NCBI RefSeq assembly: GCF_044324875.1
Contig: NZ_CP172185.1
From: Escherichia coli
Lineage (GTDB): Bacteria > Pseudomonadota > Gammaproteobacteria > Enterobacterales > Enterobacteriaceae
Length of the DNA: 64,000 nt
Direction: 5' to 3' (one strand)
Both the position numbers and the translations under genes were made by a program. The notes under the pieces were generated by a model. The model did not search any database. It was given only the letters and a program-made list of their open reading frames with translations, and had not been told where the DNA came from. Every line of letters starts with the position of its first letter. Positions within the stretch are counted from its first letter, which is position 1. Shown piece after piece: positions 8,945-9,271 of the stretch.

Positions 8945-8975
8945 TTTGTAAACCGTTCGGCACTCAATCGCCAAA

Positions 8976-9204
8976 AAGAAAAAAGCCAGCAGATAATCAC
9001 TGCTGGCGTGGCGATTAACACCAATACTCAGTCACACATGATGTCCGCAAATCAGTAGTCAGAATGACTCCCCTCCCACTGCATCAGTTCTTCAAGCATG
9101 GTTAATAGTTGTGGGACGCTTAACCAACGCAACCAGCACAACTTCGCTGTCGCGGTAAAATAGTGCTGATAAAACTGACGCATGGGGCACCTCCTTGCTT
9201 CATC
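8976..9204 (-). ncRNA. sgrS: Dual-function small RNA SgrS (glucose-phosphate stress), approximate ends
   Basis: Minus-strand transcript reading gatgaagcaagg...; conserved base-pairing region (reverse complement of caccaatactcagtcacac at ~9015-9035); 3' hairpin gccagcag...ctgctggc plus T-run at ~8973-9005; divergent from sgrR. Confidence 0.75.
9052..9183 (-). CDS. sgrT: SgrT small protein (43 aa) encoded within SgrS
   Basis: Last 43 codons of ORF 9052..9351 (-): MRQFYQHYFTATAKLCWLRWLSVPQLLTMLEELMQWEGSHSDY. Confidence 0.7.
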   Translation of the reverse strand: MRQFYQHYFTATAKLCWLRWLSVPQLLTMLEELMQWEGSHSDY

Positions 9205-9271
9205 GTTAGGAATTATTGACTTAATATAAGGAAAATAAAATTGCTGACTTTTGCGCAGGAGTTCCCCTTTT

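Follow-up and report, generated by a model that had tools for sequence, protein, structure and literature searches.

A setA-deletion allele of the leuD-sgrS-sgrR locus in Escherichia coli

In Escherichia coli K-12 MG1655, setA (77621-78799) lies between sgrS (77367-77593) and leuD (78848-79453), an order that the preliminary description of the DNA studied here had given and that the K-12 coordinates confirm. Glucose-phosphate stress leads SgrR to activate sgrS, whose RNA represses ptsG and whose peptide, SgrT, inhibits PtsG (PMC4021124, PMC9765468, PMC4509938). In K-12, setA is expressed only via read-through of the sgrS terminator (PMC9765468, PMC4509938), and the contribution of SetA to recovery is modest (PMC4021124, PMC9765468, PMC4509938). 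The DNA analyzed here, a stretch of 64,000 nucleotides from E. coli (the window), had been described as lacking setA at this position, which raises the question of whether the gene has been deleted, has moved elsewhere, or was never part of the locus, and of what remains of the stress module without it. Our analysis makes it very probable that the window carries a setA-deletion allele of the leuD-sgrS-sgrR locus, with a linked sgrS 3' segment and a stress module devoid of its read-through efflux arm.

The interval between leuD and sgrS

The window aligns collinearly with E. coli chromosomes (95 to 99% identity), and the exact SgrT, SgrR, EspY2, and LeuD proteins that it encodes are recorded from E. 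coli assemblies. Since no complete genome exceeded 98.6 to 99.4% identity, an artificially mutated sequence was considered; this was rejected on the strength of the exact proteins in public assemblies and of the mosaic distribution of the differences from the nearest public locus, which amount to 0% in the espY2 islet and 3.5% in sgrR and leuC, as might be expected from recombination.

The leuD open reading frame and the T-run of the sgrS terminator were found where the preliminary description had put them, with leuD ending at 8944 and the hairpin and T-run beginning at about 8973 (T-run at 8984-8973). Only 33 nt separate the leuD stop codon from the sgrS 3' end, which leaves no room for the 392-codon setA, and in BLAST comparisons 1,261 bp of K-12 that carry setA (77593-78853) are replaced by 40 bp of the window (8939-8978), so that the absence of setA between the two genes is borne out. 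The arrangement that defines the sgrS-setA operon of K-12, with the setA open reading frame starting about 27 nt past the sgrS terminator and reached by read-through, does not occur in the window. Searches of the whole 64 kb by tblastn, including relaxed ones, returned no SetA-like sequence but only noise (best E = 1.0). Nor did a search for a setA remnant in the 33-nt spacer succeed, as no word of at least 10 nt is held in common with the setA regions of K-12, Escherichia sp. MOD1-EC7003, Citrobacter, or Salmonella; a single 9-mer of the spacer matches E. fergusonii, probably by chance. The exact breakpoints cannot be placed base by base on a setA-bearing Escherichia sequence because both flanks have diverged, the sgrS 3' part being 77% and the leuD 3' end 88% identical; the latter figure applies to the last ~140 nt of leuD, whereas the remainder of the gene is 97% identical to K-12.

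Table 1. Features of the leuD-sgrS-sgrR locus and its surroundings in the window
Feature	Coordinates	Strand	Basis
leuL, leader peptide gene	4084..4170		
leuD, last gene of leuLABCD	8339..8944	+	201-aa ORF; translation and tblastn, 99% identical to K-12 LeuD
Deletion scar: 33-nt spacer where K-12 has setA and flanks	8945..8977		BLAST breakpoints against K-12
Outer 8-bp inverted repeat, AATCGCCA / TGGCGATT	8966..8973, 9009..9016		
sgrS Rho-independent terminator: 8-bp G+C-rich stem GCCAGCAG/CTGCTGGC (8985-9007), then TTTTTTCTTTTT (8984-8973)	8973..9007	-	Terminator scan
sgrS small RNA, full length, setA-less (CFT073-type) allele	8978..9204	-	Rfam RF00534; alignment with K-12 and other species
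SgrS base-pairing region CATCATGTGTGACTGAGTATTGGTGT, same as K-12	9018..9043	-	Alignments
sgrT, 43 aa, CFT073-type C terminus and private R26L; Shine-Dalgarno AGGAGG ahead	9052..9183	-	Translation
Codon 26 of sgrT	9106..9108	-	15-sequence alignment
sgrS position +13	9192	-	Comparison with K-12
Divergent sgrR-sgrS intergenic region: sgrS promoter and SgrR-responsive region	9205..9271		97% identity to K-12; conserved across genera
sgrR, transcriptional activator of sgrS	9272..10930	+	ORF; exact protein named SgrR in E. coli
Islet between sgrR and thiB	10925..11934		Absent from K-12
espY2	11160..11729	-	ORF; annotation

Around the spacer, sgrR, sgrS, sgrT, and leuD occupy the same positions as in K-12. 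The sgrR gene is 94.4% identical to that of K-12 at the DNA level (BLAST), and a neighboring SgrR allele carries the Pfam domains SgrR_N and SBP_bac_5. The sgrR gene is transcribed divergently from sgrS, and the 67-nt intergenic region between them, whose promoter and SgrR-responsive functions are taken from previous work (PMC2760817, PMC4021124), is conserved with K-12. Two further observations concern the neighborhood. First, an islet of ~1 kb that K-12 does not have sits between the sgrR stop codon and the thiB TPP riboswitch; its open reading frame encodes a 189-aa protein annotated as the T3SS effector EspY2 (ECs_0073 in Sakai). Of 5,426 complete E. coli genomes, about 1,025 have the islet, O157:H7, 042, and IAI39 among them; in some strains a longer or frameshifted pentapeptide-repeat version replaces EspY2, and the ~550 nt at the sgrR 3' end beside it are unusually diverged from K-12 (82 to 91%). 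Second, the 28-residue leader peptide encoded by leuL does differ at two positions, as had been noted: it carries R22L and H28N relative to the form common to K-12, CFT073, and O169:H41. Neither the four CUA leucine control codons nor the Rfam Leu_leader structure (140.6 bits) is disrupted.

The sgrS RNA, sgrT, and the linked 3' segment

That sgrS and sgrT are intact, as first described, is supported by a match to the Rfam model RF00534 over all of its 232 positions (223.6 bits, E = 3e-63; gathering score, 37) and by a 43-aa sgrT open reading frame, the exact product of which is recorded as SgrT in E. coli with a precomputed Pfam PF15894 match. The terminator hairpin has a predicted energy of -15.5 kcal/mol (z = -4.5), compared with -13.2 in K-12, and is followed by a tail of U6-C-U5 instead of the U8 of K-12. 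The 26-nt pairing region, which pairs with ptsG mRNA (PMC2760817), sits 3' of sgrT and is identical between the window and K-12; its core, ATGTGTGACTGAGTATTGGTG, is present in 74 loci.

On the plus strand, the terminator scan predicted no intrinsic terminator for the leu operon between leuD and sgrS. A role of the sgrS hairpin as a clean bidirectional terminator was considered and dropped, since the plus-strand reading has no U-run after the hairpin. The outer inverted repeat listed in Table 1 brackets the sgrS terminator and its T-run, and on the plus strand, in the leuD 3' untranslated region, it lengthens the hairpin, bringing its energy to -23 kcal/mol. The left arm is AATCGTC in E. albertii, where pairing is kept only in the plus-strand RNA, through G-U. 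This repeat could be due to chance or could be a stabilizing structure at the 3' end of the leu mRNA.

Along the locus, sliding comparisons with K-12 gave 96 to 100% identity in leuC and the promoter, in most of both leuD and sgrR, and in the first 100 nt of sgrS. Over the ~123 to 125 nt at the sgrS 3' end, however, identity falls to 77% overall and to 71 to 84% in the sliding comparison. The divergent segment runs from SgrT codon 36 through the terminator and spares the pairing region. Because it begins at codon 36, the different SgrT C terminus is part of the haplotype linked to the indel. The window's SgrT reads MRQFYQHYFTATAKLCWLRWLSVPQLLTMLEELMQWEGSHSDY where that of K-12 reads ...PQRLTMLEGLMQWDDRNSES, and 8 of the 43 residues differ, 7 of them among the last 12; the C terminus (...QLLTMLEELMQWEGSHSDY versus ...QRLTMLEGLMQWDDRNSES) is thus unlike that of K-12, as the preliminary description had it. 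Besides this haplotype, SgrT codon 26 specifies leucine in the window and arginine in all others of a 15-sequence alignment that includes Citrobacter, Salmonella, and Enterobacter; the R26L variant is natural, the exact protein being found on more than 700 E. coli contigs. Upstream of sgrT, the leader reads AAGGAGGUG in the window and AAGGGGGUG in K-12, and the hairpin predicted over the sgrT ribosome-binding site is -6.7 kcal/mol in the former versus -12.4 kcal/mol in the latter. Position +13 of sgrS is an A in place of the G of K-12, which yields the Shine-Dalgarno sequence AGGAGG and makes the K-12-specific hairpin weaker; this position also differs between the window and one of the compared loci (L088).

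Much of this has a precedent. Horler and Vanderpool (2009; PMC2760817) described K12-type and CFT073/O157-type sgrS alleles with 88% identity to each other, marked setA where present in their synteny figure, and found the hairpin that occludes the sgrT ribosome-binding site in 3 of 15 E. coli strains (PMC2760817). The altered SgrT of the window is this linked, already published CFT073-type allele (PMC2760817): SgrT of CFT073, IAI39, and O169:H41 (WP_001248768.1) is the same as the window's except for R26L, and IAI39, 042, and Sakai have the same setA-less junction. Relative to K-12, which shares 97% identity in the promoter region and 98 to 99% over the first ~100 nt of sgrS, the window lacks both setA and the K-12-specific hairpin over the sgrT ribosome-binding site. 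There are also differences within the type. In CFT073, the six Ts of the sgrS terminator run straight into an IS200C element (locus L083, about 3935-4640), which splits the T-run from the rest of the spacer, and the sgrT start codon has been lost in O157:H7 (PMC2760817), whereas the window retains its ATG. The setA-less allele is therefore already known, being visible in public annotation and in the 2009 paper. A literature search on setA with sgrR by phylogroup gave no match. What is mildly new is that the allele is common to several species and that the loss of setA occurred at least twice.

Distribution and history of the two alleles

Among 5,426 complete E. coli genomes, setA DNA was detected in 3,241, in 3,239 of them at full length, by megablast, which would miss copies below about 85% identity. 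A contiguous K-12-type sgrS-setA-leuD locus was found in 3,239 genomes and the window's setA-less junction in 2,143 (~40%), so that the two alleles jointly account for 99% of the genomes. The setA-less junction is thus one of two major E. coli alleles and no lineage oddity. This adds to the first reading of the locus, which had rightly seen that setA is absent but could not reveal how widespread the absence is in E. coli and in other Escherichia species. Over the sgrS part of the query, identity to K-12 was at least 99% in genomes with setA and 80 to 95% in those without it, and this clean split shows that the sgrS allele and the indel are completely linked. With regard to reference strains, setA is present in K-12 and IAI1, which we take to represent phylogroups A and B1, and absent from CFT073, 042, IAI39, and O157:H7 Sakai, which we take to represent B2, D, F, and E, respectively.

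The scan of species-representative genomes with SgrR yielded 80 loci, 76 of them non-Escherichia. In all 76 of these Enterobacteriaceae loci, which include Citrobacter, S. arizonae, S. diarizonae, Enterobacter, Klebsiella, Kluyvera, Leclercia, and Buttiauxella, SetA (75 to 91% amino acid identity to K-12) is encoded directly beside sgrS. E. fergusonii also keeps setA beside sgrS, and its gene groups with that of K-12 (86.5% DNA identity, compared with 75 to 78% for other genera). Together, these loci indicate that setA at this position is ancestral and that, at the level of the family, the window carries a derived deletion; judged by these sequence comparisons, setA of K-12 is a vertically inherited Escherichia gene. 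As a side observation, the E. fergusonii locus (L090, 1-3623) has an MFS transporter, a LysR regulator, a type I dehydroquinase, and another MFS transporter after setA, where E. coli has leuD.

The remark that other enterics without setA exist is also correct: Salmonella enterica subsp. enterica likewise has no functional setA between sgrS and leuD. It retains a remnant made of the first ~25 codons and of C-terminal codons (L095, 3296-3950), in contrast to the Escherichia deletion, which left no recognizable remnant, and a 93-aa secreted DUF5339 gene follows the remnant before leuD. In S. arizonae and S. diarizonae (L023 and L020), setA is intact. The loss in S. enterica subsp. enterica is an independent event.

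Within Escherichia, the two alleles do not respect species boundaries. The window shares its junction, its spacer, and its sgrS 3' allele with E. albertii, E. whittamii, and Escherichia sp. E1V33, whereas Escherichia sp. MOD1-EC7003 carries the K-12 allele. The sgrS 3' part of the window is 96.7 to 99.2% identical to those of E. albertii (96.7%), E. whittamii, E1V33, and O169:H41 but 77% identical to that of K-12, while K-12 and MOD1-EC7003 share 99.2%. Thus, setA is present in E. coli A and B1, the MOD1-EC7003-like clade, and E. fergusonii, and absent from E. coli B2, D, E, and F, E. albertii, E. whittamii, and E1V33; sequences beside the indel group by allele, and the flanks follow species relationships. 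This pattern suggests either an old polymorphism or the movement of alleles between Escherichia species, and the deletion may predate E. coli, in which case phylogroups A and B1 would have retained setA or imported it again. The terminator of the setA-less allele also closely matches those of several Citrobacter species, but the derivation from a Citrobacter donor was dropped, as both terminator types occur within Citrobacter and other genera, which makes it unsafe to infer a donor from ~50 nt.

The re-import scenario is the least improbable of the alternatives. If the deletion predated the split of E. coli and E. albertii, the ancestral E. coli would have been setA-less, the window would hold the older state, and homologous recombination with another Escherichia lineage, one that had kept setA, would have returned to phylogroups A and B1 the stretch that begins at the sgrS 3' end, includes setA, and closes with the leuD 3' end. 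Such an import would fit the near invariance of setA in E. coli, where 3,228 of 3,241 genomes reach at least 99% identity, the higher similarity between K-12 and MOD1-EC7003 in setA (98.5%) and the sgrS 3' end than in the flanking genes (93.6 to 96.5%), and the occurrence of the setA-less allele in three other Escherichia species as well as in the B2, D, E, and F reference strains. However, the same pattern would arise if an old polymorphism had been retained or if the deletion allele had been transferred the opposite way, and the sgrS 3' end is functionally constrained, so its high identity across species is weak evidence of transfer. We therefore treat a regain as a tentative possibility. 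A cross-species polymorphism of the setA indel and the linked sgrS 3'/SgrT allele that is old and has been maintained or repeatedly exchanged in Escherichia appears unlikely to us.

It is highly improbable that, conversely, the window's arrangement is the ancestral one and setA was inserted into K-12 from outside Escherichia. One could cite for it the sgrS 3' end, which in K-12 is 73% identical to Citrobacter but 86% identical in the window, and the LeuD C terminus, which ends in the widespread ...FMR* in the window and in ...FMN* in K-12. However, the outgroup data contradict it, with setA at exactly this position in all 76 non-Escherichia loci and in E. fergusonii; K-12 SetA lies at ordinary orthologue distances (92.6% amino acid identity to E. 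fergusonii and 87 to 89% to Citrobacter and Salmonella), like SgrR and LeuD; and K-12 and E. fergusonii have nearly identical terminators and setA leaders. A relocation of setA to another chromosomal or plasmid site, perhaps still under SgrR control, can be given next to no chance: although our view of the source genome spans 64 kb and three setA matches fall on plasmid records, that view contains no SetA-like sequence, and genomes with any setA match by megablast exceed those with the native locus by two, one of which holds a 79-bp fragment, so that no relocated copy is expected in the 2,143 junction genomes and the gene is absent, not moved, in this allele class (3,239 of the 3,241 setA-carrying genomes have the native-locus copy).

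Predicted function of the setA-less module and its meaning

The reading that we favor, a deletion of setA, can be put as follows. The ancestral order in the Enterobacteriaceae is sgrR, the divergent sgrS/sgrT, setA ~25 nt past the sgrS terminator, and a convergent leuD. In Escherichia, ~1.2 kb was most probably lost in a clean deletion that reached from ~13 nt beyond the T-run of sgrS to ~25 nt beyond the leuD stop codon and put the sgrS terminator 33 nt from leuD. The deletion is completely linked to the divergent 3' third of sgrS, comprising the last 8 SgrT codons, the spacers around the pairing region, and the terminator.

The anatomy of the locus supports the earlier notion of an SgrR/SgrS/SgrT module without SetA, in which promoter region, sgrR, pairing region, and terminator hairpin are all intact. 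SgrR would still be expected to switch on sgrS under sugar-phosphate stress, and SgrS would still pair with ptsG and manXYZ mRNAs through its unchanged pairing region. Translation of SgrT is probably more efficient than in K-12, since the hairpin that covers the ribosome-binding site in K-12 is absent and the Shine-Dalgarno sequence is AGGAGG. The module would lack its third arm, the SetA that K-12 translates from read-through transcripts of sgrS; in the window, read-through would instead run antisense into leuD.

Almost all work on SgrR, SgrS, SgrT, and SetA, including that on terminator read-through into setA, was done in K-12, the arrangement of which represents only about 60% of sequenced E. 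coli. The SetA arm is absent from most extraintestinal and enterohemorrhagic reference lineages (B2, D, E, and F), from E. albertii, and from S. enterica subsp. enterica, and many of the SetA-less lineages also have a different SgrT C terminus and an unoccluded sgrT ribosome-binding site. This calls for caution in extrapolating results from K-12 and offers a natural experiment on the role of SetA. The locus is no new kind of system, and in evolutionary terms the cross-species allele and the separate loss of setA in Salmonella amount to modest footnotes. If the old, maintained or exchanged polymorphism were true, it would, together with the parallel loss in Salmonella, suggest lifestyle-linked selection on the efflux arm of the glucose-phosphate stress response.
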